DNA of 61,714 nucleotides, counting the filler, from Hausera hauseri (Eukaryota): assembly GCA_046269625.1 (NCBI GenBank). It is 11 parts of 11 records of this genome, joined end to end, with 100 filler letters (N's around TTAATTAATTAA, not from the genome) between each part and the next. Parts side by side here need not be neighbours in the genome. Positions count along the whole stretch, not along the records: positions 49,978 to 56,669 come from JBJURY010074549.1; 10 more parts are not named here. One strand, 5' to 3'. Below, piece by piece: positions 7,192 through 56,669 of the stretch; the stretch's first letter is position 1; each line of letters opens with the position of its first letter. The notes below the pieces were generated by a model. The model searched no databases. It saw nothing but the letters and a program-made list of their open reading frames with translations, and was not told where the DNA came from. A program made the translations under genes and the position numbers.

Positions 7192-7917
7192 TCCCATCAT
7201 GTTTGTTCAACAAATATCAAACGGAAATCATAATACAAGCTAAAGAATGAGGTCTGTATGTCTTGTGACAGCGAAATAACAACTAAAAGCCATGAATGTA
7301 AAATTATTTGGGAATATTGTTGTCTGTTCAGTAGTCAGGAACATGTGGATAATATTGAAAGGTATTGAGATGAAAAGAAATTATTTCATTTGGATAAGTG
7401 TTGGGCGGTTTTACATGAAACGAAATTGACGACGGTTAGGAAGAATGATAATGACAATATTAAAAGAATTTGGATGAATGACGTTATTGGTACTGTCAAA
7501 TCAAAAGTCGAAATGCCGAAATCAGTTTTGCTAACTCTTGTTCAAGAAATTAAGGCTTTGCAAGACGAAGCTAAAATAGAAAGGATTATATACGCTAATA
7601 TTAAATACCACTTAACAACTCAAGTCACTGAATCGTATTATACGAGTTTCGATGGAACCGTATTTACCGCAAATATTAGTAATGAAGAAATAAAGCCTAA
7701 TTGGTGCCGAGATTTAATTCTTCTTAAAAAGGGCACTCATTGTGGTGCCGTGAATACTGGAAAGCAGTCTGCAAAACCTGATTATAAAAATGGACGACTA
7801 GAAGCAGGCCACTACAAGACTTATCTGCATCTAAGTTGCAACGAGTACTGCAAAAGGTATTACGAAGTTATTCAAATATTAATGTTGTTTCTCGCTTTCA
7901 TTATTTTGGTTTATTGA
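7192..7917 (+). pseudogene. Orphan Cys-containing protein with C-terminal hydrophobic anchor
   Basis: ORF 7390-7917 ends VIQILMLFLAFIILVY; Cys-rich frame continues upstream through a stop; no family recognised. Confidence 0.3.
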
Positions 7918-8269: not shown

Positions 8270-9200
8270 GATTCATCAGCCCAAGATACAATTTCAAGCT
8301 CTAGATCCGAATTTTGAATGGTAGATGCAAACTATGTTATCAGTATGTAGATTCGATGAGTAATATCTGCATTCTAAACAGCATTTATTTGCTTTGTTGT
8401 TAAATCTGTCGTGGTAGTAACATATGAATGACCGCGTTGGTGACGGTGTTCGGTTTCTGGAAGGAGAACGTGTTTGACGAGGCGAGAGAGCATTCCGTCG
8501 ATATAAAGAAAGGTCATTCAGTTTATTATTGGTAGTGTTGATTGTGTGTTGGAGTGCCGCATTTTCGGCACGTAATTGGTTCAGTTGGTGTTCGATGGAT
8601 GTATGACGTTGATTGTCATCGGTCGTGATAGCGGCTGATATGATGGGTTGTGATTGGATTTGTAAGACTTCGTGTGCTTTATCTGCCAATTCAGCTAGTT
8701 TATCTAAGGCTGTAGAATCTTCAACAACGGTAAGTAAAGCCCTAATTTGAATTGGTAAAGTATTAAGGAAATATCTTCGAAGTAGATCCGGATTGTGTTC
8801 CTTGGTGACGCCTAGAGTACGTAAGTGAGCCAATGAGGTGCGTAGGAGATCGCTAGGTTTTTGTGTCCCCATTGCATTTTCGTTAAAGAAGTGATGAATT
8901 AGAGTCAATTGGTGGTTCTGTCAGTTTTAACACAGCATCGAACAATTGGGTATAAGGGTCAGAGTGTTGAAAGATGTCCAGTAAGTTATGGATTGAGGCC
9001 TTTATAGAGTTTGGTAGAAAGTAGAGTAAATTATGGGCTTTGGATAACGAATCTGTGATACCGTTGGACTGTAACCAGAGTTGATAGAAGTGGAGCCAAA
9101 TTTTGCTAGACTTCTCATTGTCTATAAAATATTCGGAACAGTGTGGTGAAGTACTGATAGGATTTTAGTGAGAAGAATTTGTATCGGTTGAAGTAGGCGG
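8270..9200 (-). pseudogene. gag: Ty3/Gypsy gag (DUF7041-like type), frameshifted and 3'-truncated
   Basis: MGTQKPSDLL, FLNTLP..IR..L, LDKLAELADK, CYYHDRF...A.KC; homologous to the gag at 57139-58140. Confidence 0.8.
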
Positions 9201-9297: not shown

Positions 9298-10080
9298 CTA
9301 GAATTGATATGTATAGTTATGTGAGGCCATGATGTGTGGGAAGTCGGTTAAAATGCAACCGTTTTGGGTCAGATAGAAATCGCTGAATACGGAGGTATTA
9401 TGAATGATAACGCATAGTTGTGATGTCTCGATACGTTGTCTGACATGTACTATTTGTATTAGCTTATTATTGACATAAAGATAGAGGGGACATGATGGTA
9501 ATGTACTGTAAACCGGGTTGTGTGATATATCGATGTGATCATTCGAAGTTAAGAAAGTTGCTTTGAACGTTTCTTTTGAAGAATATGTCCGATCTGTGGA
9601 CTCACTATGGTTAGTGGATCTATTGCTTTTATAAGTGATGCACGCTGAAAGTTGACAATAACTAAAATTATACGGATTCTGTTTACAGTCAGAAACTCTA
9701 GTCAGGTACTCGCTGTCATCAGAAGAAGAAATCAGGCTGACTTTGCGATAATGTGCCTTGATTCCACGCCGTCTCATTGCAGATATATTAATCTCTGTAG
9801 ATTCATCAGTGTCGGATATTGTAGGTTTGGCAAGGTATTCAGTGATTGCTGTCTCGTTTTTGCATTGTAATATGCAACATAGTATATGCGGCTATAGTAA
9901 TGAACGATAAGATAGCAAACTTTTATAAGGTGAATGGACAGGAAAGGTTTTTATGAAAAGAAAACTTTAAGTAAATGAATCTTAAGTAACGAAAGTAACA
10001 GTGGGCTGTGGGAAAGGGTGAAGTTGTGCCAACAGCGAACATGTTAAAAATAAAAACTTATGAGAAAAACGGAAAAAGGG
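9298..10080 (-). pseudogene. Unknown Cys-containing region after a hydrophobic stretch (possible ectodomain)
   Basis: Follows the module shared with 55060-55480; ORF 9298-9777. Confidence 0.25.
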
Positions 10081-10660
10081 AATGATTAACAAGAAAAATA
10101 AAAAATGATTGCTTGACGAATAGAGCTTAATAACAAATCCCACCTCGTCGTGTACTGGTCTCTACATGATTGGCAGTATCGTTTTCCGCTAGGGCACAGC
10201 AGATCGGCTTCTTTACGTCGTGTCGTTCTACGGGCGGTCTGTATGTACCACCACTCTTTGAACGAACCAACAAGTTCGTTATATATTGTCTGTTTGTCAT
10301 TGCATCTTGTACGCTTGCCGTAGTTTGACATAATCATTCTGCTTGTTCCACTCTGCAGTCTAGTAAGGATAACATCGCCAGTCGACAGCAGCTGTTGTTG
10401 ATGTTTTATATGTTGTTTCATCTGTGGTAATGCCAGCGGTCCCTTATTACATATTTTAATTGCAATTAAATCATTCAACGATTCTGCATTGTGACTTAGT
10501 CGATTCTGAAACGACGGATAGCTCTCAGATGGATCAAACTCCACGTAGGATTTAAATAAGGTCTGTGGGGAATAGTTTTTTAATGATGGTGACTTGTGTT
10601 TGGTATCGGTATGTTCTCTATGATTGTTAAGTGACTTAGTGATGTCCTTCAGTAGATCCT
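10060..10660 (-). pseudogene. Degenerate integrase C-terminal-like module shared with 54950-55480
   Basis: DPSESYPSFQNRLSH..YIQTARRTTRRKEADL matches DPSKRYPSFQNRLSH..YIQTAHKTT*RKEIDP; LLKDITKSLNN..T..KSP and LSTGDVILTR resemble IN core-end and SH3-region motifs. Confidence 0.5.
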
Positions 10661-10684
10661 TCGATTATTTCTGTAGTGTAATAG

Positions 10685-10900
10685 AAGGTATTTCCAACGG
10701 TGTCGTTCCAGTTGCGTCAGCAACATTTGTATCGGTGTCAGCAGTCAACACTAAATTGACAACTTGCTAATTCGGAAACTGATAAATGAGAAATCGAGCG
10801 GTCTGACCGATTTCTTTCGAACGAGTTAGATGAAGTAACGTTTGGCCGGTGTAACGTCGAGGATCAAGTTGGACTAATCGGAAAATCTGAATACGAAATC
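10685..10900 (-). pseudogene. fem1: FEM1-family C-terminal ankyrin fragment (within ORF 10767-11285)
   Basis: QIFRLVQLDPRRYTGQTLLHL...FPN*QVVNLVL..DTDTNVADATGTTPL fits the FEM1A/B/C C-terminus; no intron. Confidence 0.7.
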
Positions 10901-11481
10901 GGGAGTCCATTTCTTTAGAAAGCAGCGACAAAAGATTCAGTGACCCTCCGGTATAATGATCAATGAACATAGACATAAATGTTAGAGAGAGAGATGTTTG
11001 TTTGAATAACTTAAATGCGTCTTTGTCTGCATTGGTGTATGACCAGTACTGTTTGTTACGCCATCTATAATAACTGAATTCGATTCCTCTTTTAATATTC
11101 AATAATTCGTCAGATGTTGAAAGCTTGGTAACGTCGTCCAGTGCTTCTTTGGCACGTTTCAAAAGGAGTTCGTAATTTTCAAGTGGGAAATTTTTCCAAT
11201 TTGGATTACGGCGATAGAATGAATCGAAAGTGACTTCAAGATAGAAATTTAAAAGTTCTAATTCGTTTGTGTTTGAAACCTCCATTTTTGTATCAAAAGG
11301 GGATATCTACTTTGGTTTATCATCCAGATTATACGCTTTGTACGTATCACCATCACCAATCACATTCCGTTTCCACATTATGCAGTGAAACATCCGATGT
11401 ACTGAGGCATTTCAACAACGGCCTTTTTCAGTGGATATCTTTTGTACAATTCTAACGGGTATCGCTAGGATTCTTTAGTTT

Positions 11482-16830: not shown

Positions 16831-17493
16831 TCAATTAACGTGTATATGTTTTTCTGATTCCATCGAAGTTGAGACGATGATTTCATTCATCCCAGCACCG
16901 CCACCGATTACCATTTCGAAAAGGCTTTCAAATGGGCCCGAGCTAAGAAATTCCCGAAATACAGCATTTGGGTCTTTATCGACTATTGGCAAAGCACTTC
17001 GCACCAATAACTTCTGACGATGTTTTCTTCCATTGCAATGCTGCTTTGGGATTTCGGCATTGTTGAACACGGATCCACATAAATAACATCGATCATCGTC
17101 CATTTTGTCTGATTCATTTACCACAAGCCTTCCACCAATGCGAGCAATTCGATTGTAAATGTTACAGTACAGATTGTCCAATTTTTTAAGTGATCTGGTC
17201 GCAATTTTGGATCAAAATACCAAACATCTTCATCACCGAAAAATCCCATCCGTCGTTTGTTTCTTACCACTGTAATGAGCAATACAGATATTCAATGAAT
17301 TTAGCGATGTCAAGCAATATGCAAAATATGACTGTCGATGCAACACTCGTAAATTTGAAGGAATTCGAACGTAATCATCTAATTCTTCAATAATGCCATC
17401 AAAAGAGGCTTTAGATTTACGACTAAAACTCATAATTGTTAAAGCGAAATCTGTAAAAAAATGTAACAAAGCAGAATTTTCAAGTTTGTCCAA
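16831..17493 (-). pseudogene. Matrin/U1-type C2H2 zinc-finger protein (ZMAT/ZNF385-like), disrupted
   Basis: CYLCGSVFNNAEIPKQHCNGRKH plus a damaged finger YCLTSLNSLNICIAHYSGKK; frameshifts between them. Confidence 0.65.
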
Positions 17494-17793
17494 AATTTAT
17501 TGTTTATTAAAACTGTTTATTTTTTGATAACATAAGACGCCTATATTTAAGTGCGCAAGTACCACAAATACAACGACGAGAAATAGAAATTACTAATATT
17601 ATGTATAAATGTGAGTATAAAGTAACATGGAAAACATACGCAATGAAGAAACAATACTGAACTAAATATGACAACAACGACAAAGTGCATCAGTCCAATA
17701 GAATAAACGTGCATTTGTTTTCTAAGAGGAAATTTTCTTTTCAATCGTTACAGATTATCAAATGAGATCGCAGTGTCCACAAAAATCCCATTT

Positions 17794-18688
17794 CTAGTGA
17801 CGCTTGCGATTGGACATTTCTTCAGCTTGGTGTTCATCATCATTACAAATCTTGTCATCGTCCATTTTACAATGTTCCGAACATTCATCAGTATCGTGAT
17901 TATTCCCAGTCCCATCTGCGTCCTTTGATTTATCGGTGGATCTACCCAATCCATTGGGTTTACGACTCTTCGACATTTCAAATTAGATCTTCAAAAGGAA
18001 TGAATGGGTCTCTGATACCGTCAAGCAATACCGATACTCTAAAATATGTTAGAAAAGCAGAGCTGCTAAAAACAATTGACTCGATCCAATAGGGATCTTT
18101 TGCAATTTTTCCATTAAAAGCATGATTGCGACTGCCAAACTTCCTTTAACGTTATAGCTGGGTGAAGGTAGAAAATTGTTAACACTCGTCACAACACCCA
18201 TACACGCTTGTGAGAATGGAATCATTGCATCTTCTACGGTACCTTTCGCCAGGCCAATTAATAACCAAACAAGAGTTGAGTTGGAGTATTTTTCTTTTTT
18301 ATTGTCACCCTGAATCCGATATGCACATTTCTTGCCCGATAAAGTTCTTTCACCAAACTCAAACAAATCATTCGCAAAAAGGATACAATTTTGAATACAA
18401 TGTCAAAAGGAAAATAATTGACTAGGTACCAAGAAAATGTCGCATGGATGACATTTTGATGACAAGTGCTTCACCGACCAACAAATTTAATGACACCAAA
18501 CCTGCAAAACACGACAATATCGTTGCAAACCAACTAGCAAGAGGATGTTGTCAGGAAAATGCTTTATTCCCCGGAGCAATCTGTCATACGTTGTAACTTA
18601 TTAACAAATAATGGCATACATTTATATAAGGGCATAATTCGATTGTGTCTGAAATTAACGCTAAAGTTGTTAGAAATTTTCCATCCAT
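17794..18688 (-). pseudogene. TMEM38: TRIC cation channel (TMEM38) pseudogene, no introns seen
   Basis: AFS*QHPLASWFATILSCFAG..LLVGE, WYLVNYFPFDIVFKI, KELYRAR, IGLAKG, PSYNVK, DPFIPFE; two TGA stops at Arg positions plus frameshifts. Confidence 0.85.
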
Positions 18689-18948
18689 TTTTGCATTAAG
18701 ATCTAACTATATTGTTGTAAATCGCTAATCGAGTGTGCAAAATGTGTTAAAAGTACGGCGTACGTAGCAGTACACGTATTCAGTCACTTGTTCACACGAC
18801 GACTTTGAATGTTTCACTGATTGCAGAACAGTCCGAATTTGATAATTGCGTCAGGAAAAAACAAATTAATCTGAACAGATTCATACGAGAAAATTTAGAT
18901 AGCAAAGTCCATTTTAATGAAGATTTAACAATTGTCTAAACTTTAGCA

Positions 18949-41878: not shown

Positions 41879-44793
41879 AGTAGTATTATAAGGCAATCAG
41901 TGATTTGGCGCGGACAATTGGTTGCGCAATAGGTGGATTTAACAAAAAACTTCGATGGCGTAGCCAGTCGGGGTAAGGGGGAGATAACGTTTTTTGGAAA
42001 TGTTTTAAGGGGGAGACAAATATTGTATATTTTTGTTTTTAATTAGGTAATTAATTAGGTAATTATGTGTTTTAACTAAATAATGTGTGTAATTTTATTT
42101 AAATAATAGTTATGTATAATTATAGTTGATAAAGTTGTTTTCCGAGAGTGCTGGGGTCACCCTAGGTGCTGCGGTCGGCCGCGTCGTCTGGGCGTTCGCC
42201 GGTAATTAAGTAATTGTTTTTAATTAGGTAACTAGGTAATTATAGTATAATTATGGTATAATTATGTTTTGTAATCCTTGATAAGAGCGGGGCAGACATA
42301 CTGTCAGGGTAAGGGGAGTGACAAAGTCTGACTCAGCGGGTTTTTTATTTTTTCATCATCATCATTCTTTTTTATTTTTCATCATCATCATTCTTTTTGG
42401 TAACGTAATTTCTTTTTCTTTAGTTAGACGTGAGACGCATTATGGGGTAATGACGTGTTATGTCTTTGTAGTAAGTTAGGTACTAGATGCTGTATATACC
42501 AGCATTCTGTTTGATGACGTCAGCATCTTGATGTCGTAATTTCTTTTTTTTCTTTAGTTACGTGCAGTAAGGGGTGAAGGGGCTGTGGTGGTAATGTGTC
42601 TTTGTCTCGGGACTAATAGTGTTAGGTCTATGTAGCGTCAGGTGCTGTGTCGTATATGGGTAGTGGGTCAAAGAAGGGTCATATTTTGATGTTAATGTCG
42701 CGGTTCTCAAGGGCGATGATGGAGATTTAAGTCGTCTTCTTCGTGTTTAGGCCATGTCGATCATTAAAGGGGTACATTTTTTCTGTTAAGGGCGTGTTTC
42801 TCAAGTGTGCTGGTAGTGATTTAGGTCGTCTTCATCGTGTTTAGGACAGGTCGGAGCATTAAAGGGGCACATTTTTTCTGTTAAGGTCGGGTATCTCAAG
42901 GATGCGGGCGGTGGTTTAGGTCGGATTCTTCGTGTTTAGGGCCATAGAAGGGTGATATTTTCTGTTAAGGGCGTGTTTCTCAAGGGTGTGGGCGGTGGTT
43001 TAGGTCGGCTTCATCGTGTTTAGGGACATGGAAGGGTCATATTTTCTGTTAATGTCACGGTTCTCACAGGCGATGATGGAGATTTAAGTCGTCTTTTTCG
43101 TGTTTAGGGCCATGTCGATCATTAAAGGGAAACTTTTTTCTGTTAAGGGCGTGTTTCTCAAGGGTGCGGGCGTGGTTTAAGTCGTCTTCTTCGTGTTTAG
43201 GGACATGTAAGTGGGGTATTTTCTGTTAAGGTCACGTTTCTCAAGTGTGATGGTGCTTTAGGTCGGTTTCTTCGTGTTTAGGGATAAGTCGGAACATTAA
43301 AGGAAAACTTTTTTCCTGCTAAGGTCCTGTTTCTCAAGGATGCGGGCGATGGTTTAAGTCGTCTTCATCAAATGTTTAACACACAAATTTAGACGGTTAG
43401 ACGAATGGCTTTATTCACGTTGGTCGTACAGGTGTGTTTTGCTTGAGCGATAGCAAAACAATGGATGGCTTTACCCCTTTGTACGAGGACGAACACTGGA
43501 ATGTTCCACTCGTTGCCGGATAAGTTTGGTAAGAATAATATTTCTGTGTTTTGTTTCGTCTTTCTAAGGAGCGGGCCGATAAATTATTCGTACAGTGAAA
43601 ATTGTTGTTTGAATGTTGGTAGATTTTCACAGTTTTACTTAGGAAAGATAACAACGGTCGGTTCGTCTTTATTAAGGGCGACCGGATAAAAGAAATGTGA
43701 AAATTGTTATTGGAATGTTGGGATGTTGGTAGATTTCAAAGTTTTACTTCAGAAAAATACAACGTTAAGATACCCGTTAGAACTAAAAAATTGTGTGCAG
43801 ATTGACTGGAAGATCAGCCAAATATCAACTGTTTGAAGATGGCCGACTTGACAAAACTGTAAGTAACAAAAATTTCTCATGTTGTAAGTAACAAAAAATG
43901 TAAATTTCTCAGGACACTACACATATTGTATAGTTTGTACTTTCTCGAATGACTAAAACATGTAGTATTTGCCTTATGTTAATAAAATGAACTTACCAGT
44001 GTTATAATAATAAAATGTGTGTGATAAACGTTACAAGATTCAGCCGCCATTTTTGCTTCCACAAAACTCTGTCCTCTGACTTTACCTTCTGCTGTCACAT
44101 GACCCCGCTTCCTGTTCTGCCCGTTCCGCTTGACTTTGTCCTTGCGGCCGCTTCCTACGCCTGACTTCACCCATCTTTCGTGTACACACATACGGCACTC
44201 TGCGCCTCCTGTACTAGCCTGCAACGTCACCTGACTCTGCCCCCTACGCCTTCACCCGCCATCTTGCCTTTGCCGACCCTCGACGCCTGCGACGACTAAC
44301 TCTGCCCCCTTGCGCCTCCACATGACGACACCTGTCTCCCCCTACATCCGCCATCTTCCACTGTCTTTGTCCTCGCCTATCCCCGCCTCTCGACAAGTGT
44401 GTGACATTCCCCCGACCTCTAAATAATTTGCTATATTTCTTATACATTACAACCTCTGCAAAGGAACATGATGATGAAAAACACTAAGTGGGCCGAAACA
44501 AGGTAGACATTAGGAAAACTATATTGGAGTATAGAGCCCCACAAGGAGAGAGGACACCGAGCCCTGTCACTCCTAACTGGTCATAAAAAGAATGATGATG
44601 ACGAAAAACCTGCTACTGGAAGGTCTTGGTCACTAAAAAAACAATAACGCCTTATAAAATGACACTACTACACACGTCCCTCGCTCCATCACCCCAACTA
44701 ACTAGCCATCAAAAGAATGATAATTAAGATCTATAAACATTGTGCTATTTGTTCCAGGCGCAGAACGACTTTTCGCTCATCTTATAACATGGT
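41879..44793. mobile_element. Non-coding element bounded by long degenerate inverted repeats (possible non-autonomous Polinton-like or foldback element)
   Basis: Inverted similarity between 41879-41990 and 44675-44793, and between 42316-42372 and 44585-44640; left end AGTAGT; internal tandem array. Confidence 0.4.
42681..43380 (+). repeat. Minisatellite, about 8 units of about 83-96 bp
   Basis: Core ttttctgttaagg..ttctcaag..ggtttaggtcg..cttcgtgtttagg repeated; long and short variants. Confidence 0.9.
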
Positions 44794-44869
44794 CATCTCA
44801 TATTCTGCTAAGAATATGAAACATGAAACAATATATGAAAAATGTGCACCATATAAATTTTTTTTCCAG

Positions 44870-45082
44870 AAATATAGGAATGGGCGTGGCTTCTATGTCT
44901 GCAAGAATTGGTGGAATTTTTGCACCTTTTGTTCTTGAGCTGAAAGATATCTGGGGTTCCTTTCCGCTTCTGGTTTTCGGGGCACTGAGCATTCTCGCTG
45001 GATTGCTGGCACTTTTTCTACCCGAGACATCAAGGAAACCACTGCCACAAACCATGGAGGATGTGAAAGACAGGGGACACGG
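44870..45082 (+). CDS. SLC22 / organic cation transporter family exon (TM11-12)
   Basis: (R)NIGMGVASMSARIGGIFAPF..PLLVFG..AGLLALFLPET..PLPQTMED; ttccag acceptor and gtgag donor. Confidence 0.9.
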
Positions 45083-45735
45083 GTGAGCTATAATTAAATG
45101 GTCTGTGGAGATTTGCGATAAGACTAGACGAAAGAATACAGATCTGGTGTGGTCGTATTTCTGACTCAGTATATTTGTTCTGCGTTTTTTTTCCTCATTA
45201 AAGGCATTATACATTGTGTTGATAGCATTGAACTTCAAGATACTGAACAGTAATTTCAAAGTAAAATCTCTAGTTTGCCTCTAGTTATCAATACACGCAA
45301 GCCTACATTAAGTTAGAGCTAAATTTTGAAGCCGCCTTTTTCAAGACAGAGCACTGCAGGACGTTTGTGCCCACTACTACTTTATTATTTTTTTTTAACT
45401 AAGTGAACACTTGTACGTGTTGATCTAAAGAGGGCCTGTATGAAGATGCGTAACTTCACGTCAGGCAGGACATGTTGGCAAGACAACAGTTACTAATAGA
45501 TACAGAATTATACATGTCCGTGTCTACAAGACGGTCTGTCACTGATATTTCTAAATGCTGTAATCAGAGTGTTAGCTGCTACTCATGCCAGGTTTGAGTA
45601 CTCGTTTCGTCAAAACAACAAAGATCTCACCACAGTGTACGAAACTCATAGCACCAGAGAGGATCGATGTTGTAGTTGATACGAATGTTCTCCAGTTACC
45701 AGCTTTCAATCTTATTCTTTTCCAATATTCAACTG

Positions 45736-47465: not shown

Positions 47466-49383
47466 ATGTTCTTGTGCCACCAGATTTCCAAGTGTCTGAT
47501 ATCGGTTCGTATAGTGAAGATGAAGAAAACATTATTAGAAATAATGATGATGTTTCCTCAGATAAAACAGAGGCTTATTCCATTCATGAGGACTCAACAC
47601 CATCAGATGATGACTCGTCCAGTAGATAAAGCACTTACAGGTGGACAAAGGGTAGGTTTCGATCAAGCCAAACAGTGCACGATGATGTCACTTTCTGCAA
47701 GCAGATAAACTATCATCAAAGTCAGACTACTTTCTGAAATTATTTACACGACAGCTGATTACAGAAACTACTGAGCATACAAATTTTTATTCAATTCAAG
47801 TATCACAAAGTTGCATAAATGTGTCAGATGCAGAAATAAGTGTTTGTGGATATACAGTTGATGATGGGGAATGTTGCCGTGCCATCTGTGACAGACTATT
47901 GGAACACATTGTCGGTATGATAACATCAAGGATTCTATGTCACTAAAACGTTTTCACAAGACAAAGAGGTACATCCACATTAGGGGCAATACTGGCTCAT
48001 CTGATGATGCACTTCTAAAAATGCTCACTGTGCTTGAAAGCATCAGAGCTCAGTACAATATCATTGAAAATGAAACCAGTATGTCAGATGATGAAATGAT
48101 GATACCATACAAAGGACAAAAAGCTGTTGCTTTGCGGCAGAATATTCCTAGCAAACCCGTGAAGTGGGGTTTTAAAATATTTGTACGTTCTGGTGCTTCA
48201 GGGAATGTGTATGATATGTTGGTGTATACTGGAACAACAACATTTAATGGTATTCAGTTCGGCCCAGCAGCAACCAATCTCGGAGTGGGTGTTTTTGGGC
48301 AACTTTTTCTGCTCATTTGACCTTACTCGTCATCTAAAGTAAGCAGTACACATTGACAATTTGGGTACCTTGCGCAGTATTAGCATTCGCAACTGTCCAA
48401 TTGAAGATGAAAAAACACTACAGAAGCGTGGACGAGGAATTTTTGATTGTGCTGTGGATATACGATGGGTTGACGATAAAACTGTAACTCTTGCCAGCTC
48501 ATTTGTTGCAGTGGAACCTGTTGGGATAATGAAACGTTACAGTAAGGAAACCAAAATCAAAGCAGATGTACCATGTCCGGCGACTGTAACTCAATATATC
48601 AAACAAATGGATGGAGTCGATTTGTCGGATATGCTTATTGCACTATATCGAACTCCAATAAAGTCAAAAAGGTGGTATCTTGGGATTTTTGCTCAGTTGT
48701 TGGACATTAGTGTAGTCAATGCCTGGCTACTGTACAAATGAGATTATGCTGGCTTATTTGAAAACGAAGAAGCTACCAGCAACATCCCTCGTATGTTGTC
48801 TTTGAAGGACTTTAGGTTACAAATTTCATCTACCTTCATTAATGCAACTAAAGTTGATCAGCGTGGACAAAATAGTTTCGCAACTACGCATGTTCCAAAA
48901 GAGACGATTTTCAAAGCAGCCAACACCAGTGGGAGATGATGCAAGATTTGATGGTGTGGTCATGACATTGTAAAGACTGTGAAGGGTAGATGCCGAAATT
49001 GTACGAAAGGACAAACCAGGATGAAGTGCTCGAAATGTGGGGTACGGTTGTGCGTTGCACAGAGCTGTAATTGCTTTGTTGATTACCACTATAAAAAGTG
49101 ATCGACAAGTAGTATGCGACCGCTGTGAATGTGTCTGTATATCGTACAATAGTGGACTAGTTGTGTGGTATTTGTGTTACACGATGACTATTTTGAAATT
49201 TATGATTACTGCGTTGCTATTATTCGTAATTTAGGCAATGTATCCAAATGGATGCTCGCTGTAAAATCCATGTTCTTGTGATACAAAAGAATTGAATCAG
49301 AGATATTTTTATTTTAATATGTTCAAAACAAAAATGTGTTAAAAATGTTCGTGCATATGTAAGTCTCTTTGCCACGTTAAGGG
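47466..49383 (+). mobile_element. piggyBac (PGBD3-like) transposon, disrupted
   Basis: DEMMIPYKG, KPVKWGFKIF, GTLR, WVDDK, MDGVDLSD, NAWLLY, RFDGVGH plus C-terminal Cys cluster; right end AAGGG followed by TTAA at 49384-49387. Confidence 0.9.
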
Positions 49384-49977: not shown

Positions 49978-50009
49978 TTTTTAATTAGTTTTTGATTTGA
50001 ATTTGGACT

Positions 50010-50126
50010 AAAGAAATAAATCGTTAAATTTTGGTTTAACTCTGTTTTGCCGTTTTTCTTATATTACTCTCCTATGGAATTATTAGAAATTGTCATATAT
50101 TCAAGCGAATTACAATGGTGTCAGAA
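50010..50126 (+). repeat. LTR-end-like direct repeat plus tRNA-Leu-type PBS (second copy 50457-50570)
   Basis: About 93 bp nearly identical to 50457-50549; followed by ..TACAA TGGTGTCAGAA (50116-50126). Confidence 0.65.
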
Positions 50127-50169
50127 TAAAACTTCTGAGAATGTATTCGCCCATTATCGAATAGCTGAG

Positions 50170-50400
50170 AATTTATTCAACAATTTGGCTGTTCTTTATG
50201 GAAAACAGAAAAAGTTTCAAGAAGCTGAAACACTTTGCAAAAGATCTCTTGATCCGTGAGCAACTTTTGGGACCTGATCACCCAGATGTTGCCAAACAAC
50301 TGAATAACTTGGTTTTTCCTTGTCAGAATCAGTGTAAATACTCAGAAGTGAAGAACTATTATCATCGGGCGATCGAAATTTATTCTAATTCGTTTGGTAA
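50170..50400 (+). pseudogene. KLC: Kinesin light chain TPR fragment
   Basis: NNLAVLYGK..EAETLCKRSL / IREQLLGPDHPDVAKQLNNL..CQNQ.KY.EV..YY.RAIEIY; one frameshift; no intron. Confidence 0.88.
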
Positions 50401-50560
50401 AGAATCAGATAATCAGTTTTCTTTTGATTTTAATCATTACAAAACAATCCATTTAAAAAGAAATAAATCGTTAAATTTTGGTTTAACTCTGTTTTGTCTT
50501 ATTCTTATATTACTCTCCTATGGAATTATTAGAAATTGTCATATATTCACATGAACAACA

Positions 50561-51726
50561 ATGGATGTAGGCTTCGAATCCATACATACAGATATCGTCG
50601 GTCCTCTTCCTCTTGACAACGGTCATCACTTCATTTTGACCATGATGGATCGCGCCTCACATTGGCCAGAAGCTGTCCCTTTACGAAGCACTAACACGGA
50701 TACTATAGCCGAAGTTTTCATCCGCATTTGGATCAGCAGGTTCGGATCTCCTAGATTTATCATGTCGGACCAAGGCCACCAATTCCAGTCCAATCTATTC
50801 AAATCACTTGTTAGCAAATTAGGAATCCATCATATACACACTACGCCTTATCATCCACAATCAAATGGTCTTATTGAGAGGTTCCACAGAACACTGAATA
50901 CTTCGCTAAAGATCCTCGCTAAATCCAACAGTAGTTGGACTGTTCTTCTTCCTTTGGTTTTGCTTGGTTGGCGGAACACTCCATCTACTTCCACAGGATG
51001 CTCACCTACCCAAGCATTATTTGGAACACCTGTTCGCTCCTTGTTCGAGTTAACCGCACTAGATAATACGCCTACAGATGAAAAGATTAAAGTAGCACAG
51101 GACCATTTCATTGAAGTCAGTAAAGACTCATTTTGTAGAATACTACACAATTATAAAACATATTTACCTGACGACTTGTATTCTGCACAGTTCGTTTGGC
51201 TGCGTAATCAAACACCGTGTGGCTTTCAACCGCAGTATCTCGGGCCTTATAAGCTAGTTCAACTATTTTCTCACAACGCTATAATCCTTAAAGATGGAAA
51301 AGAACTAACAGTCCATATAAATAATGTGAAACCTGCCTTTTTGTGGATGACACCTCTCCAACTGAAACTTCGACGAATTTTCTGACTCCTAGATTTCCTT
51401 CTGTTTCTACTCCTGACTCTACTCCTACTACATTTTCTCCGGTTCCTGATTCTGTTCACACATTCACTCCACCTACTATTCCTACCCCTACCACTCCTTC
51501 ATTTTCTCCTCCCACCTTCTTACCAACAACTACTTTTCCTTCTCCGAGTTTGTTTCAGCAAGACACCACATTTAACGCGACAGATTGTAATATCTTCCCT
51601 TCCAAAGAATTTCAGCAAACGGAGACTAAAGAAAAGAGATTGCACAAAACTGTCACTTTCAGCAAGTACAGTAAGGAGAGAAACATCGAAGGCATACAAC
51701 GCCTGGTAAACACCAAAACCGAATAG
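50561..51726 (+). pseudogene. pol: Ty3/Gypsy integrase core with S/P/T-rich tail
   Basis: DIVGPLP, WPEAVPL, SDQG, TTPYHPQSNGLIERFHRT, YLGPY; frameshift into the tail; homologous to 19195-20840. Confidence 0.92.
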
Positions 51727-51828
51727 TAAAACCACAAATCTGTCACATAAGACCACATAGTCAGTTCAAACTATTTCATTCTACGTTCGCTTACTATCTC
51801 TTTTATCTTTACAGTCACACCTCGCCAC

Positions 51829-51841
51829 GGGGGAGGGGGGG
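51829..51841 (+). promoter_or_regulatory. Polypurine tract
   Basis: gggggaggggggg downstream of the integrase tail. Confidence 0.7.
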
Positions 51842-52009
51842 TAATTTTATGATCAACGAAATTATGGTTCCGTTTTTATTTCATTTTTTGTGTTAAGTGT
51901 AATTACAATTTTATCGTGACTTCTTTTCCATCTGCTGACGAATTGTTGTGTTTTGGTGTTTTATTTTGTCGTGCAGTGCTCCTCGTCGGGACTACAATCA
52001 TTTAAAACG

Positions 52010-52185
52010 AATCAACATTTTACCGAAAAGAAAATATTTATTGAATTTTACCAAAGTAAAAATTTTAGGAATTTTCCTCAGTGTTCTACCAAAACAGATA
52101 TATACATCGAACTTTGATGTCGACATGAATCAACGTTCTACCGAAAAGAAAATATTTATCGAATTTTACCAAAGAAAAATTTTCT
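52010..52185 (+). repeat. Short direct duplication (about 56 bp, period about 118 bp)
   Basis: atcaac..taccgaaaagaaaatatttat.gaattttaccaaag at about 52011 and 52129. Confidence 0.75.
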
Positions 52186-52342
52186 AAACTGTACAGAAAT
52201 ATATATCGTGTATATGGAGTAATGATTTTATGGACAATTGATTTTTGTTATGATATTTGAATTTGTAGTGTTTAGAAGATATTAAATCTCGTTATCCCAT
52301 CTTTTGTTGTACATTTTGGATATAATAACCAAAAAACTACAT

Positions 52343-52352
52343 TGGTGTCAGA
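52343..52352 (+). promoter_or_regulatory. PBS-like TGGTGTCAGA after an ...ACTACA LTR-like end
   Basis: Complementary to the tRNA-Leu(CAA) 3' end; ATG follows at 52382. Confidence 0.55.
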
Positions 52353-52539
52353 GAATTTCCTACAATTTTGTCAGAACCAACATGCTTAACAGAAGTTGCA
52401 GTAAAGAAACCACAGTAGCTCCATTTAATAGATATCAGTTTTTAAAGATCATGTCAAAAATTAATTTTATTTCTGATGTTGAAAATATAAATATTCGTTT
52501 TAAAGCCATGCTTCCTAATAGAATACTCTTATTGACAGA

Positions 52540-53514
52540 CACTGAATTTAACGAATTACGACAAATTATTACTAATCCGGATACAAATAAACCGAAAAAA
52601 TTTGGGGATATTGAAAATTCCTAAATTAGCAGAAACACTGGAGATTTTGGCAAACGAACCGTATGCAATAAAAATGGATCTTTGATTCAAACGGTCGTCG
52701 ATGAAATCCGTAATGCCAGTGGTATCTTAACAGTAGGAGACTTTGAAAAGTATGAAACAATTTGGCGAAAACCTGCGGAAGTTGGATTAATAGATAATGA
52801 TGTTTTATATACTTTGCCACCTCCATCAAGTGGAATTTTAGTTGGGCTGATACTCAATATTTTAGCAGAATATTCATTTGATTCTAGTTTCGTCCATGAT
52901 TGTAAAAAAGCCGGTTTATTTTACCATCGTTTGGTTGAAATTCGTTTACGGACAAAGATCAGCTCTAGGAGATATGGATTGCGTAAACATCACTAAAATA
53001 ATGGCAGATCTCACATCGGACAAATTTGCCCAGTGGATAAAATCTAAAATATCAGACGATAAAGTCCATCCAGTGAAATACTATGATCCACAGTTTGAGG
53101 TGAAGAAGATCAGGGAACCTCTCACTTCAGTCTTATTTCTCCTGACTGTGATGCAGTCTCCGCAACATCTTCAATTAACTACTTATTTGGTTCATTGGTA
53201 ATGGGATCGAAAACCGGAATTTTGTACAATGATAAAATGGATGATTTTTCTACACCGAACGTATCCCATGTTTACAAATTACCCCCATCGTCAGCTAATT
53301 TTATCCGACCGTATAAACGTCCAATGTCACCGATGAGTCCTAGAATTATCGCGGATAAGAATGGAGATGTAAAAGTCGTTGTTGGTGCCGCTGGAGGTAG
53401 CAAAATACTATCGAGTACAGCACAGGTTGCGGCCTTGTCTACTGTATTAAATTTATCAATTAAACAGTCCATTGATTCACCCAGAATAAGTCATCAATTA
53501 CTTCCCAATGTTGT
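52540..53514 (+). pseudogene. GGT: Gamma-glutamyl transpeptidase fragment (large subunit end plus small subunit)
   Basis: LRQIITNPDT..GD, LAETLEILA, PPPSSG, YHRLVE, GILYNDKMDDFS, NFIRPYKRPMS, GAAGGSKI, PRISHQLLPN; frameshifts; no intron. Confidence 0.92.
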
Positions 53515-53516
53515 CA

Positions 53517-54425
53517 TACTTCCCAATGAATCGGGAGTGGTTTTGTCCCTCGAAAGTGATTCCGATGACTATCTAATATTAGAAATGGCGGGCAGATTAC
53601 TCCGCAGTATGTACAATTGGGGAAGTTGTTACAAGAGAAAAGTTTCCGAAGGTAGTTTCATAAACGACGGATGGTGGCATTTCGTTTCTGTCGTTCGGCA
53701 ATTATCGGATTCACATTCATTTGCGTTTCGAGTCGATGGTCATCCCGACGGATCAAGAGCTCATTTACCTGTAGACATTGGAGGTGTGAATTTCAATTAT
53801 TTTGGAAATATGTATCTAGGTGAATACAAAGAAAATGAAACGATTATGACTCTTGACAAAGAAAAACCAAAATCAGTTGAAGGTTTTGATGAATGCATAT
53901 CATCATTTTTGGTAACCAATATTCTCACTGAAAATGAATCAGTGGAATACAAAGATTTTCTCAAACTAGTCACTGCAAAATATTATATATATTGCTCTGA
54001 AGATATGTACAATCAAGAAAATCAGTGCAGCAATGAAGACTGCTATTTTCAAGGAACTAGTATTCAACAGTGGAAAAAAATGCAATTCGATTGTTCAATG
54101 ACGTCTTTTACCGGTAACCGATGTCAAGATGTGTCTTCAACTGTACAGTTTATGAAATATCCCAGTTATTTTATCTTGAAGTACACATACAACATTAGTT
54201 ATTCAATTATTAAAATTGTATAGGGATTTCAAACAAACTCAGTGAAAATATCTAAACTAATCGTTCTCAACGACGAAGCAGCAAAAGAATTTCTCGAAAT
54301 TGGGATATACATTCAAATTAGAGCCAGTTTCATTCAACTGAACCGTAACACGGCGGATAAAACATATTATTTGTTAAAAAATCGAATAAATGTCGTCGAT
54401 GGATTTTACCATATTGCGAGATGTT
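53517..54425 (+). pseudogene. NRXN: Neurexin fragment (LNS-EGF-LNS)
   Basis: DYLILE, INDGWWHFVSVVR, MYLG; EGF C..QG..IQQW....DCSMTSFTG..C.D; GFQT, DGFYHIAR. Confidence 0.85.
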
Positions 54426-54640
54426 ACAGAAAGAAGAGTGTTATTGTTCTTTATCTGAGTAATGGGACGTTACAAATAAACACTTTCAACGATCACACAA
54501 AACTTGTATTATGTCCATGTTTGTCCGCCATTACATACATTGACGGTACCAAAACTTTTAGGACAATCCGAACGGATTATCTGCGAATTTCGGGAAAAAC
54601 TTTCGAAATGCATCAGAGATTGGAGTATTGCTTGAAGATT
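54422..54640 (+). pseudogene. PLK1: Polo-like kinase polo box 2 fragment
   Basis: SVIVLYLSNGTLQINTFNDHTKLVLCP..SAITYID..FRT..RLEY. Confidence 0.88.
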
Positions 54641-54649
54641 ATCTCACTC

Positions 54650-56029
54650 ACAATTCAAAAGGAATATCTATCTCATCTAAAAATTGATGGTGGTGCCAAA
54701 CAAAGTATGTGGAAAAATGAAACTAAAATTGATGAGTTACGTATAGAAATATTGAATATATACTCTTGGGTATACATTAAACATGATAGTTATCGTTGTC
54801 GGTTTAGTGAAATAGTGCATGAAATGAATAGTGATTGTATTATCCCAAAGTACTGGTTGTCACTCAAAATAGAAACCACCCCGTATATCGAAGAACGATT
54901 AACCGACTCACTTTTTACCGATTATCAATTTTCTGACAATCACATTACTGCCAACAGTTCTTTTAACGATAGAATTGAACCAGCTGGTAGATAGATACGA
55001 AGCCTCAAAGATAAGACTTATTATGTCTGTGCTAATTGTGTAGAGTTCCGAAAAATCGATTTGGACCCATCAAAGAGATACCCATCGTTTCAGAATCGAC
55101 TCAGTCATCACGCGGAAACGTCAAATCATTTAATTGCAACCAAAATGTTCGATTATAGACGTCTGTCAAACGGCGCCAAGCTGACAAGTTCCGATGAGAA
55201 TCAGACAACATATTACAAACTGACGGGTTCGTCCCCAAAGTCGTTGTATATTCAGACCGCTCACAAGACAACTTGACGCAAAGAAATCGATCCGCAGTCT
55301 CCATAACGCAACATGATACCACCGATCAGGGAGAAACCTGTAAACGATGAGGTTAGATTCACCATTATACATTGTTCAGTCAGCGAATATTTTTATACAT
55401 TTTTTATTCATGATATTTACCCATTTTTCTCCTACTTTGTCCATTATATAGGTAACACAACATCGCCTTCCTTTGGTTTTGTAAGTAGGGAAATATCTGA
55501 ATCTTGCTTACATAGTCGCAACAACAGTTTTTGACTTGATGTATATTCATATATGCGTTTAGCCCATACCATTCGTTGTAAGATATTCAACTACGTGTTC
55601 ACGACTTTTCTTAGATCATTTTTTAAAACTATATTCCAGTCTCTAGATTTCGTTGAAAATAAAACGATTAACGATTACAGTACACCTATAACAATGTATC
55701 TACTGTTGGCCATTTGTAAAGATCAAGGCGTCAGTGAAAAACTATATTTTCTATGTGGATTCACATCCAAATCTCCATCTACCATTGGTAATATTCGAAT
55801 GCTAACGGAACAGACTATAAACTTCTTTAACTATCCCGTAAAAGCCAGAAATTCAGTTGTAATAAATAGTCACATACAAATTATACTTGATAATAGTAAT
55901 CACTTGAATAGTACGCAATTTATGGAAATATTCATTTATTCTTTACGAGATTTTGTGGATAATAGGATAAACATTATGTCATGGGGAAAATTGGATTATG
56001 CTGAGATGGTATTCATCATTTTATATTGA
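54650..56029 (+). pseudogene. Degenerate integrase-like module plus hydrophobic segment and unknown downstream protein
   Basis: SFNDRIEPAGR*IRSLK weakly resembles NGxxERxNRxIK; 55060-55480 is homologous to 10060-10545; same frame as the upstream mosaic. Confidence 0.45.
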
Positions 56030-56669
56030 CTACGTGGCATTTCTGTTCTATGTGGCCGTAGATGTAAAATTAGTACAGGATCACACATCATGCGCAGACG
56101 TCATGTGCATCTACCTTGCCTATAAACGAGGGATTTAGTAAGATCGAACATTATTGCAGTGTTGAGAAGAATAGTCCGTTTGAAGTACGGAATGCTTTAC
56201 TCTATCCGATGCCCGATCATACTCCATTGTACAATACGACCATACATATAAACCTTTTTTCTGCATGATGATCAATTGGAAGGAAATATTCTACATTTCT
56301 AGCATCGGTAAAAACAATTTGCGAGCTTGTATGTTTAATAGTAAAGTTACAAACGGACGAAAATAATCAACCAGAAATTATCGTCTTTTCTCGTTGATTG
56401 TCAAACCCAGTATGACGGATATAAACGAGGTTTTGTTGGAGTAGTGAATAATAGAACTGTTTCGATTATAAATCTCCATGTGACGCTGTTAAGTATCAAA
56501 CACGAATTTCCGAATTGGCGATTTATGACCATTCAAACTTTTCTGCGTTTTTCCCACAAGGAATTACCTGAAACACAAAACTTACGGTGCGCCGTTATTT
56601 ATTTGATAATTTTCCAACTTATGCCCTTTTCGAATCATAATTTAACAACATTGGTCGTTTTCTGTCAGG

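Follow-up and report, generated by a model that had tools for sequence, protein, structure and literature searches.

How coding pieces of three unrelated host genes came to lie in one reading frame behind a retrotransposon primer site is the question raised by a locus of Hausera hauseri (Eukaryota; NCBI GenBank assembly GCA_046269625.1). The locus is on contig 10 (JBJURY010074549.1), which occupies positions 49,978 to 56,669 of the window, that is, of the whole stretch of 61,714 nucleotides, filler included, in which 11 parts of this genome are joined end to end. The mosaic of three unrelated host genes in a decayed retrotransposon is real, and its best reading is that an LTR retroelement captured spliced host mRNAs.

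Element parts and captured host pieces

Upstream of the mosaic, contig 10 (all of its features given here are on the plus strand) contains a gypsy integrase core with its C-terminal part (50555..51385; Pfam rve, E 4.6e-13). Its counterpart in contig 4 shares 69% identity with it, and the nearest relatives found outside, in loci L001 and L002, share 34%. The integrase is the last domain of pol and is followed by a polypurine tract (PPT, 51829..51841), read from the sequence, and by an LTR-like stretch of approximately 500 bases (51842..52341), which is the arrangement of a Ty3/gypsy element; the order of tract then LTR also occurs in L001, L002 and L011. Directly after ACA and one further base, a primer-binding site (PBS) motif, putatively of tRNA-Leu type, is present at 52343..52352. 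The motif matches twice in the window against 0.10 expected, and 1 of 100 shuffles reaches two matches, the pattern for this count having been built from the two counted sites themselves. The other copy, an LTR end with the motif at 50116 (50112..50125), heads a separate captured piece, an intron-less kinesin light chain (KLC) TPR piece (50160..50420) with a single frameshift near 50245 and no in-frame ATG. The stretch leading up to this first PBS (50010-50118) recurs as a 93% duplicate at 50457..50564.

The primer motif claimed in a preliminary description of this DNA is thus confirmed, while the LTR-like end is placed between PPT and PBS by position alone, and no second copy of it, including the 3' LTR that was looked for, was found in the window. 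Comparisons among 49978-50114, 51845-52341 and 56134-56648, and of these with contigs 2, 3, 4 and 11, gave similarities within the shuffle range, and neither an LTR pair nor a target-site duplication was found around the unit, the contig stopping at 56669, 640 bases past the frame. No gag or pol was found 3' of the PBS before the contig end, and no env-like family was matched in contig 10 by Pfam. The identical motif follows an LTR in gypsy locus L011, the sole new gypsy-like locus among 123 examined by tblastx. Scanning viral contigs with the PBS pattern yielded 120 stretches, mostly due to chance; no tRNA gene overlapped the motif in the scanned loci, and a literature search on its letters returned nothing evidently related. 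Scans with the integrase found three distant gypsy loci in metagenome contigs and no related locus in viral contigs. Since the PBS of L001 and L002 differs from the motif at 52343, the gypsy pol of contig 10 and the mosaic may belong to separate, nested elements.

Behind the PBS, an ATG-led leader of 58 codons (52382..52555), of no matched origin, has 0 stops against 5.0 expected and matched no family in Pfam and further family and structure searches. It is followed by a continuous, intron-less GGT piece (52556..53527) covering approximately residues 199-520 of about 575 (Pfam E 8e-47; human GGT1 light chain E 2e-37); the protein search returned eight homologues, all at 46-53% and thus none of them a near parent. 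An alpha-neurexin piece (53528..54430) comes next, comprising partial LNS5, EGF3 and partial LNS6, aligned to residues 873-1152 of neurexin-1-alpha (E 6e-21) and interrupted by a stop at 54221. The third piece is a PLK1-type polo box 2 (54413..54655; E 6e-19), which ends close to the natural C-terminus but lacks the stop. The identities, sense orientation and intron-less structure previously proposed for these pieces were all borne out by the alignments: about 2.1 kb are aligned without an intron-sized insertion, including approximately 975 bases of GGT and 900 bases of neurexin that are intron-free as judged against homologues. The pieces are cut inside domains at both ends, with no poly(A) tail. 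Elsewhere in the window, a GT-AG intron of 42 bases interrupts SelO (contig 5) and is visible as an alignment gap, and three candidate introns of 56-90 bases, recognized by motif only, lie in an MMS19 copy of contig 11. Capture from mRNA is preferred because the pieces are intron-less, sense, end-truncated and directly behind the PBS, and because host genes have short introns.

The joins are marked by short similarities. A 12-base direct repeat with copies 18 bases apart (53499..53528) lies at the GGT/neurexin join, one of four such repeats in 59,798 window positions, and the neurexin and polo alignments overlap by six codons; both were seen in the mosaic itself. Public contig X1 covers 52521-54254, where it differs at 10 letters and by 1 gap, and 54225-54743, where it is identical to the window; X2, from a different study, covers 52495-52784. 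The leader/GGT join and both host-host joins are each bridged by single public contigs at a depth equal to that of neighbouring sequence, whereas none of the 16 matches listed, out of a set with 3266 more, bridges the passage from polo to the repeated sequence past 54743. X1 and X2 each carry one base more than the window does, within or close to the neurexin piece, which would break the frame in those copies. The depth of the cargo is flat (8.5-12) and that of the flanks is higher, in summed depth and not copy number, so that the mosaic cargo looks unamplified. Parental exons gave no visible extra depth at 80% likeness in record-filtered data, unused as evidence, which could mean an old capture. 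The polo segment had no match among longer proteins, the neurexin-polo stretch none among shorter proteins, and the GGT-neurexin frame no related locus in viral contigs; no parent gene of the cargo came out of these searches.

The reading frame and its shared module

A single frame was described from 53195 to 56029; it is in fact open already from 53099 and ends at 56026, with 5 stops in 976 codons against a shuffle mean of 69.2, while the remaining five frames over 53099-56026 have 50-88 stops each. An altered genetic code is ruled out, as TAA, TAG and TGA each appear among the breaks. The leader, the three host pieces and 458 codons of no matched family sit in this one frame. The ATG at 52382 shares its frame with the first GGT residues, and the claimed in-frame entry into GGT is correct only for the first ~17 codons, after which the large-subunit part is interrupted by a stop in the ATG frame at 52622 and by two frameshift pairs, at ~52608-52670 and ~52945-53110. 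Five stops lie between the members of the second pair; because the frame is regained across them, it can be restored by chance at this locus. All four visible frameshifts lie early in the cargo, in the initial 26% of the part that was checked by homology (P 0.005 under a uniform distribution). With missense assumed at 10-15%, the stop deficit has P 0.02-0.20 in the host pieces and P 0.04-0.56 over the whole frame, and is weak as support for past translation. Among GGT residues invariant in the eight homologues, 7 of 39 are altered here, compared with 0-6 of 39-45 in the homologues, and GGT enzyme function is therefore not maintained.

Downstream of polo, the frame continues through an open segment of no matched family (54653..55054), a genomic repeat from about 54700-54750 on, then through a coding module (55055..55460), and ends in a partly hydrophobic segment without a family match (55460..56029), which closes at a stop at 56027; 55310-56026 has 1 stop in 239 codons against 17.2 expected. 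The module, earlier called integrase-like, matches no integrase. It has no Pfam match in six frames, the main frame has no match in NCBIfam, PHROGs or PDB, and a phmmer comparison with 343 ORFs of the window and three gypsy loci gave nothing convincing, leaving an off-frame integrase, RNase H or gag N-terminus unsupported. One match among 1.84 billion representatives, to a repetitive protein of 1740 residues, was judged spurious, and no related locus was found in viral or metagenome contigs. Atlas gave a weak lead for the contig 2 copy of the module (DUF8422, 0.97, with a recognition of 1462, which is under the reliability mark) and, for the hydrophobic segment, an unnamed match at 0.92 and DDE transposase families at 0.86-0.89, which are leads only. 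Single-sequence structure predictions (pLDDT 37.9 and 43.1) were too low for use.

A sister copy of the module is present in contig 2, on the minus strand (10040..10544), with 71-79% DNA identity and a 105-base insertion relative to contig 10. There the frame enters it from another host piece, related to FEM1 (10665..11306, minus strand; FEM1B/C E 2e-5 to 3e-5), and about 0.9 kb upstream of a gag-like gene (8297..9164, minus strand; DUF7041 E 0.002, below the cut-off), which is homologous to the gag-like frame of contig 11. Between the two copies, dN/dS is 0.36 in the main frame compared with 0.99 and 0.66 in the other two frames, and mismatches favour third positions (48/113 versus 52/225; P 0.0004). 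This recurrence suggests a cargo slot that may be filtered for frame.

The post hoc chance of the in-frame joins is 0.11 for the two host-host joins, 0.012 for all four, and 0.004 when the contig 2 join is added. The contention that such a frame is unlikely without selection for translation thus draws support from the four joins and the module dN/dS, and is weakened by the weak stop test, by microhomology, which could bias joins into frame, and by the KLC piece without an in-frame ATG. The need to translate the module is an assumption, because the module cannot be named. We infer template switching in the particle, selection on the frame only, and later decay. Spliced host mRNAs would be co-packaged into the particle of a gypsy-type element, where reverse transcription with repeated template switching would join the GGT, neurexin and polo kinase pieces; translation would start at the ATG downstream of the PBS and continue as far as the conserved element module; selection would act on this frame and not on the function of the captured enzymes, with stops and frameshifts accumulating later. 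We give roughly even odds to a decayed gypsy-type unit that gained host mRNA pieces in this way and whose frame was kept by the need for translation. Of the serial template switching into a once-translated polyprotein first proposed, mRNA capture stands as the best reading, and selection for translation is moderately supported. The captured pieces are probably passengers rather than functional domains. More tentatively, and with the odds against it, the two loci may represent a gypsy family with a standing cargo slot before gag, whose frame has to remain translatable into the conserved module; it would go on gathering spliced host mRNA pieces, of which only in-frame mosaics survive, and so be a frame-filtered exon-shuffling engine. 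The proposed contents of such a slot are GGT-neurexin-polo, FEM1, and perhaps a CTU2-zinc finger combination in a third copy.

Competing explanations

A neutral capture mediated by the LTR element, with the joins in frame by chance and microhomology and the chimera never selected as a protein, is unlikely. The joins between host pieces that are verified on either side number just two, the overlap of the neurexin and polo alignments lies at one of them, the stop deficit is weak, the flat depth looks unamplified, and multi-gene LTR retrocopies with premature stops are reported in the parts of PMC5131818 considered here. This explanation has to face the single frame shared by the leader, the three pieces and 458 codons, the second capture, FEM1, whose frame runs into that module as well, the low dN/dS of the module and the concentration of frameshifts at the 5' end.

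It is distinctly improbable that the mosaic is contained in one very long LTR, from 51842 to ~56650, in which the PBS at 52343 was captured from another element. An ACA-T-TGG motif at 56648, just before the contig end, where depth rises, would fit such an LTR, as would the host pieces that follow a PPT in contig 4 without the PBS motif of 52343 and the host piece before gag in contig 2. The contig 10 tail, however, shows no similarity to the sequence ahead of gag in contigs 2 and 11 or to that after the PPT in contig 4; the CA-TGG motif was not found before gag in contig 2; and ACA-N-TGG occurs eight times on the plus strand of contig 10, so that another one is weak evidence.

It is very unlikely that a non-LTR reverse transcriptase, or break repair templated by cDNA, joined the pieces and that their position behind an LTR is secondary. 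In favour of this, contig 4 contains a decayed TRIC copy that lacks introns, has a 3' trailer and is apparently of full length, and no LTR pair was found; yet poly(A) runs in 52343-56669 do not exceed 7, the 3' ends are missing from the pieces, and two captures begin directly behind the PBS motif.

Still less probable is capture at the DNA level, Helitron or Pack-type, from intron-poor genes or older retrocopies. The intron-bearing, apparently damaged MMS19 copy upstream of the gag-like gene in contig 11 indicates that genomic host DNA also adjoins these elements, and the transposase leads for the last segment point the same way, as leads only. Against this, the long GGT and neurexin spans are intron-free, and every piece is sense and purely coding, the retained introns or non-coding DNA typical of Helitron and Pack-type captures being absent. 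An assembly chimera can be practically dismissed, since, although the contig is short, lies in a concatenated bin, and X1 possibly comes from the source sample, single public contigs bridge three joins at neighbour depth and X2, from a different study, bridges the leader/GGT join.

Relation to known captures and implications

The mechanism of capture is already known in invertebrates and for multi-gene chimeras, and the mosaic is a variant of LTR-mediated retroposition, not a separate element type. In acutely transforming retroviruses such as E26, host coding pieces are fused in frame behind the primer site. Contig 10 differs from these in that no env, sign of infectivity, selection by host effect or retained domain function is apparent from its sequence, retained function being contradicted by the stops, the frameshifts and the altered GGT residues. 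There is no sign of an envelope, cargo spread or host effect to justify the label of an invertebrate analogue of a transducing retrovirus. The name E26 gag-myb-ets is cited in PMC2193544.

That label also overstates the novelty: Tan et al. 2016 (PMC5131818, here and below in part) report such chimeras in fly and mosquito. They describe partial intron-less mRNA pieces within animal LTR elements, with switches at short similarities, and chimeras such as fly CG4799_CG11924 (two genes) and mouse 'Super' (four genes), in which stops arise later. Intron-less partial coding pieces with LTR-element sequence on the 5' side are common to those retrocopies and the contig 10 mosaic. In contrast to them, at least four successive joins hold one frame here, and a second element joins other cargo, again in frame, to the module found downstream here; a shared in-frame slot is not reported in that portion of the paper, supplement file 1 being outside its scope. 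Maize Bs1 is an LTR element with three host genes captured into one hybrid frame, described in the portions of PMC13317346 and PMC5131818 considered as transcribed and translated, whereas the contig 10 frame is broken and its host is an animal. According to part of PMC6431247, the planarian giant gypsy elements Burro / GYPSM1 encode domains resembling those of host proteins (MATH, BIR, ankyrin, BCL2), either within a single polyprotein or in an accessory ORF upstream, and the Burro cargo is fixed and present in thousands of copies; here the cargo varies from copy to copy, is truncated within domains and looks unamplified. Bdelloid LTR elements with an extra ORF3 (PMC5408684, in part) and Drosophila telomeric elements that capture piRNA genes (PMC13534243, in part) are likewise invertebrate retroelements that acquire host sequence, but what they take up is an entire functional ORF or, in non-LTR captures, is directed at silencing genes, and GGT, neurexin, polo, FEM1 and KLC have no common silencing theme, unlike the Drosophila telomeric captures.

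LTR-mediated retroposition is a known source of chimeric genes, whose products are mostly regarded as accidents, and the single copy in contig 10, broken and apparently unamplified, shows no function by itself. In practice, such mosaic loci yield false multi-domain gene models. If a frame-filtered family exists, the in-frame bias could be divided between element selection and microhomology by direct count, and the family would give the genome ready-made multi-domain frames at a high rate.

A decayed mosaic of three host genes in one frame

Contig 10 (49978-56669) carries a real, decayed mosaic of three genes. The GGT piece begins near 52556 and, with no intron, represents approximately residues 199-520 of 575; it was identified by Pfam in three pieces and by the human GGT1 light chain. 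It is followed by neurexin-1-alpha residues 873-1152 (part of LNS5, EGF3 and part of LNS6) and by PLK1 polo box 2. Judging by the neurexin, PLK1, FEM1 and kinesin light chain (KLC) genes, the host is an animal. A single open frame had been proposed in the preliminary description, and this was borne out from 53099 onward, with 5 stops in the 976 codons of 53099-56026 versus 69.2 in shuffled sequences and 50-88 stops in the other five frames. The GGT small subunit and polo segments contain no stops (8.4 and 5.7 expected, respectively), the neurexin segment one (22.7 expected), and the 458 codons past the polo piece, unassigned to any family, four (32.8 expected). The proposed ATG-led entry into GGT holds only at its start: the ATG at 52382 is in frame with the first GGT residues, but read-through fails because two frameshift pairs (about 52608-52670 and 52945-53110) break the GGT large-subunit part, with one stop in the ATG frame at the first pair and five at the second.

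The mosaic stretch is present in two sequencing runs (shares 0.68 and 0.09), neither recorded as RNA. Contigs of the public data set X1, which may be the sample behind the assembly itself, cover 52521-54254 (10 other letters, one gap), 54225-54743 (0 differences) and 52142-52422 (2 differences), and a contig of X2, from another study, covers 52495-52784 (1 difference). These contigs bridge the joins between primer-binding site (PBS) and ATG, between the ATG-led leader and GGT, and between the host genes; both host-host joins are thus confirmed in X1, and the leader/GGT join also in X2. No piece bridging the join into the repeated part past 54743 was found among the matches listed. Compared with the window, both the long X1 contig and one from X2 (54041-54282) contain a single additional base each, so the frame would shift in those copies. 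Summed X1 depth runs at 8.5-12 across the cargo. It is higher to either side, at 14-78 in the LTR-like stretch and leader and 53-279 in 54682-56669, and reaches as much as 40,000 in the integrase. Such sums do not count copies; the profile is that of unique cargo between shared flanks.

Retroelement surroundings and probable route of capture

Most of the window's 11 contigs, which N spacers separate, carry decayed gypsy-type pol or gag pieces. Upstream of the mosaic lie a gypsy integrase (50555-51385) and a polypurine tract (PPT, 51829-51841), followed by an LTR-like stretch of about 500 AT-rich bases, whose usual TG start is absent in the contig 10 copy, and by ACA-T and then the motif TGGTGTCAGA (52343). 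The ACA-led motif occurs twice in the window versus 0.10 times expected, the pattern having been picked after both sites were known. It is regarded as the primer site because L011, a gypsy locus outside the window, has it behind its LTR, in the order pol, env-like ORF, PPT, LTR (an IMG/VR contig from a viral collection). We take the motif to be of the tRNA-Leu type. Culex Mag and Mdg3 elements are listed with Leu primers (PMC3286476). Within about 45 bases of the second motif (50116) begins a KLC piece with no in-frame ATG; in this region (49978-50564 (+)), the intron-less KLC TPR piece is followed by a 93% copy of the pre-PBS stretch, abutting the integrase. The LTR pair supposed to bound the mosaic was not recovered, repeat comparisons within the window yielding no second LTR copy. 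In the outside gypsy loci L001 and L002, the integrase is 34% identical and the PBS differs, so the integrase and the mosaic may belong to two nested elements.

No intron-sized gaps occur across about 2.1 kb of the three aligned host genes. In the same window, SelO exons in contig 5 (23109-23612 (-)) contain a 42-base GT-AG insertion at a 14-residue alignment gap, and in MMS19 of contig 11 motifs point to three candidate introns, 56-90 bases long. The host pieces break off within domains, and A runs in 52343-56669 reach 7 at most. The GGT/neurexin join has a 12-base direct repeat whose copies are spaced by 18 bases; counting it, 59,798 window positions contain 4 such repeats. The neurexin and polo alignments share six codons (54413-54430). 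Intron-less, domain-cut pieces and join repeats would fit template switching onto spliced mRNA, which we infer rather than demonstrate, since viral contig scans and protein searches with cargo segments found no parent genes. That an LTR element captured RNA in one way or another is very likely.

The mosaic resembles LTR-mediated retroposition in its working and shares with it coding pieces that lack introns, are cut at both ends and have LTR-element sequence on their 5' side; no second LTR copy was recovered, and the putative switch points show the 12-base repeat and the six-codon overlap. LTR-flanked partial retrocopies are described in fly, mosquito, fish, chicken and mouse; of 29 fly junctions, 25 show microsimilarity, and the cases include a fly chimera of two genes and a mouse chimera of four, two parts of which have premature stops (Tan et al. 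2016, PMC5131818). Related cases include maize Bs1, with three genes fused in one translated frame (review PMC13317346), planarian Burro, a gypsy polyprotein with host-like domains (PMC6431247), bdelloid LTR elements with extra ORFs (PMC5408684), and Drosophila telomeric elements that take up piRNA-pathway genes (PMC13534243). In contrast, the suggested analogy with a transducing retrovirus fails because family searches of contig 10 gave no envelope match and the captured function was not kept. Keyword searches of mostly open literature turned up no animal gypsy family described as having a variable cargo slot kept in frame upstream of gag, which is weak evidence that none exists.

Other loci in the window

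In contig 4, the region behind pol and a polypurine tract (16834-18690 (-)) contains a TRIC channel copy that is decayed, has no introns and carries a 3' trailer. Next comes an ATG-led frame in which CTU2 (weak match, E 0.005-0.012) and a zf-met zinc finger (E 5e-4) overlap at a CxxC common to both; the last part may look DnaJB-like, and the frame is a possible third mosaic. The MMS19 copy of contig 11 (59000-61714 (-)) combines its short candidate introns with apparent damage, an in-frame stop and a frameshift, and a gag-like gene follows about 1 kb downstream of it. Transposase-like frames were seen by eye farther along contig 5, and contig 9 has a remnant of a piggyBac-like transposase (47892-48741 (+), Pfam DDE_Tnp_1_7). 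An MFS transporter end piece (44820-45086 (+), SLC22-like by eye) lies near a tandem array of 84-95-base units (42665-43378). In contig 2, a 182-codon open frame (7369-7917 (+)) faces the gag-like gene from the opposite strand, and family searches gave it no reliable match. The ends of contig 1 (1-77 and 7015-7091) are identical over 77 bases, reflecting an assembly overlap or a circle, and the contig has an internal 314-base repeat pair.

The downstream module and possible past translation

The module at 55055-55460 had been called integrase-like, a label we drop: searches of Pfam (six frames), NCBIfam, PHROGs and PDB gave it no match, nor did it match the local pol proteins. A sister copy does exist, in contig 2 (DNA identity 71-79%), preceded by a FEM1-like piece in a shared frame and followed about 0.9 kb downstream by a gag-like gene; on either side, the module flanks show no homology between the two contigs. 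With the FEM1-like piece in contig 2 versus GGT-neurexin-polo in contig 10, one module therefore receives two cargos in frame. The contig 2 region (9298-11481 (-)) runs from the FEM1-like piece through the module and a 197-codon open stretch (9301-9891, no family match) up to the gag-like gene. The module's 2 stops versus 4.4 expected are not significant by themselves. Its mismatches at codon positions 1, 2 and 3 (24/113, 28/112 and 48/113; P 0.0004), together with a dN/dS of 0.36 over 108 codons in the mosaic frame (0.99 and 0.66 in the other frames), indicate that it is coding in that frame.

Past translation is favored by this constraint, by the in-frame joins and by the clustering of frameshifts early in the cargo. 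All four joins fall in one frame (chance 0.012, or 0.004 counting contig 2; 0.11 for the two host-host joins alone), and of the checked cargo, the first 26% contains every one of the 4 visible frameshifts (P 0.005). The stop deficit is suggestive at best: at 10-15% missense, 3-6 stops are expected in the 514 host codons and 1 was observed (P 0.02-0.20), and 5-11 are expected in the whole frame and 5 were observed (P 0.04-0.56). Against translation, the second GGT frameshift pair shows that frame can be regained by chance, the KLC piece is without an in-frame start, and microhomology among similar motifs would by itself raise the number of in-frame joins. GGT function itself was lost: among 39 residues that do not vary across 8 homologues, 7 are altered, one exactly at the join, versus 0-6 of 39-45 in leave-one-out controls with GGT homologues. 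Past translation with a frame filter is finely balanced. The mosaic is best read as a probable product of LTR-mediated capture of spliced mRNAs, and a gypsy family with a frame-filtered cargo slot is a tentative and rather doubtful prospect.
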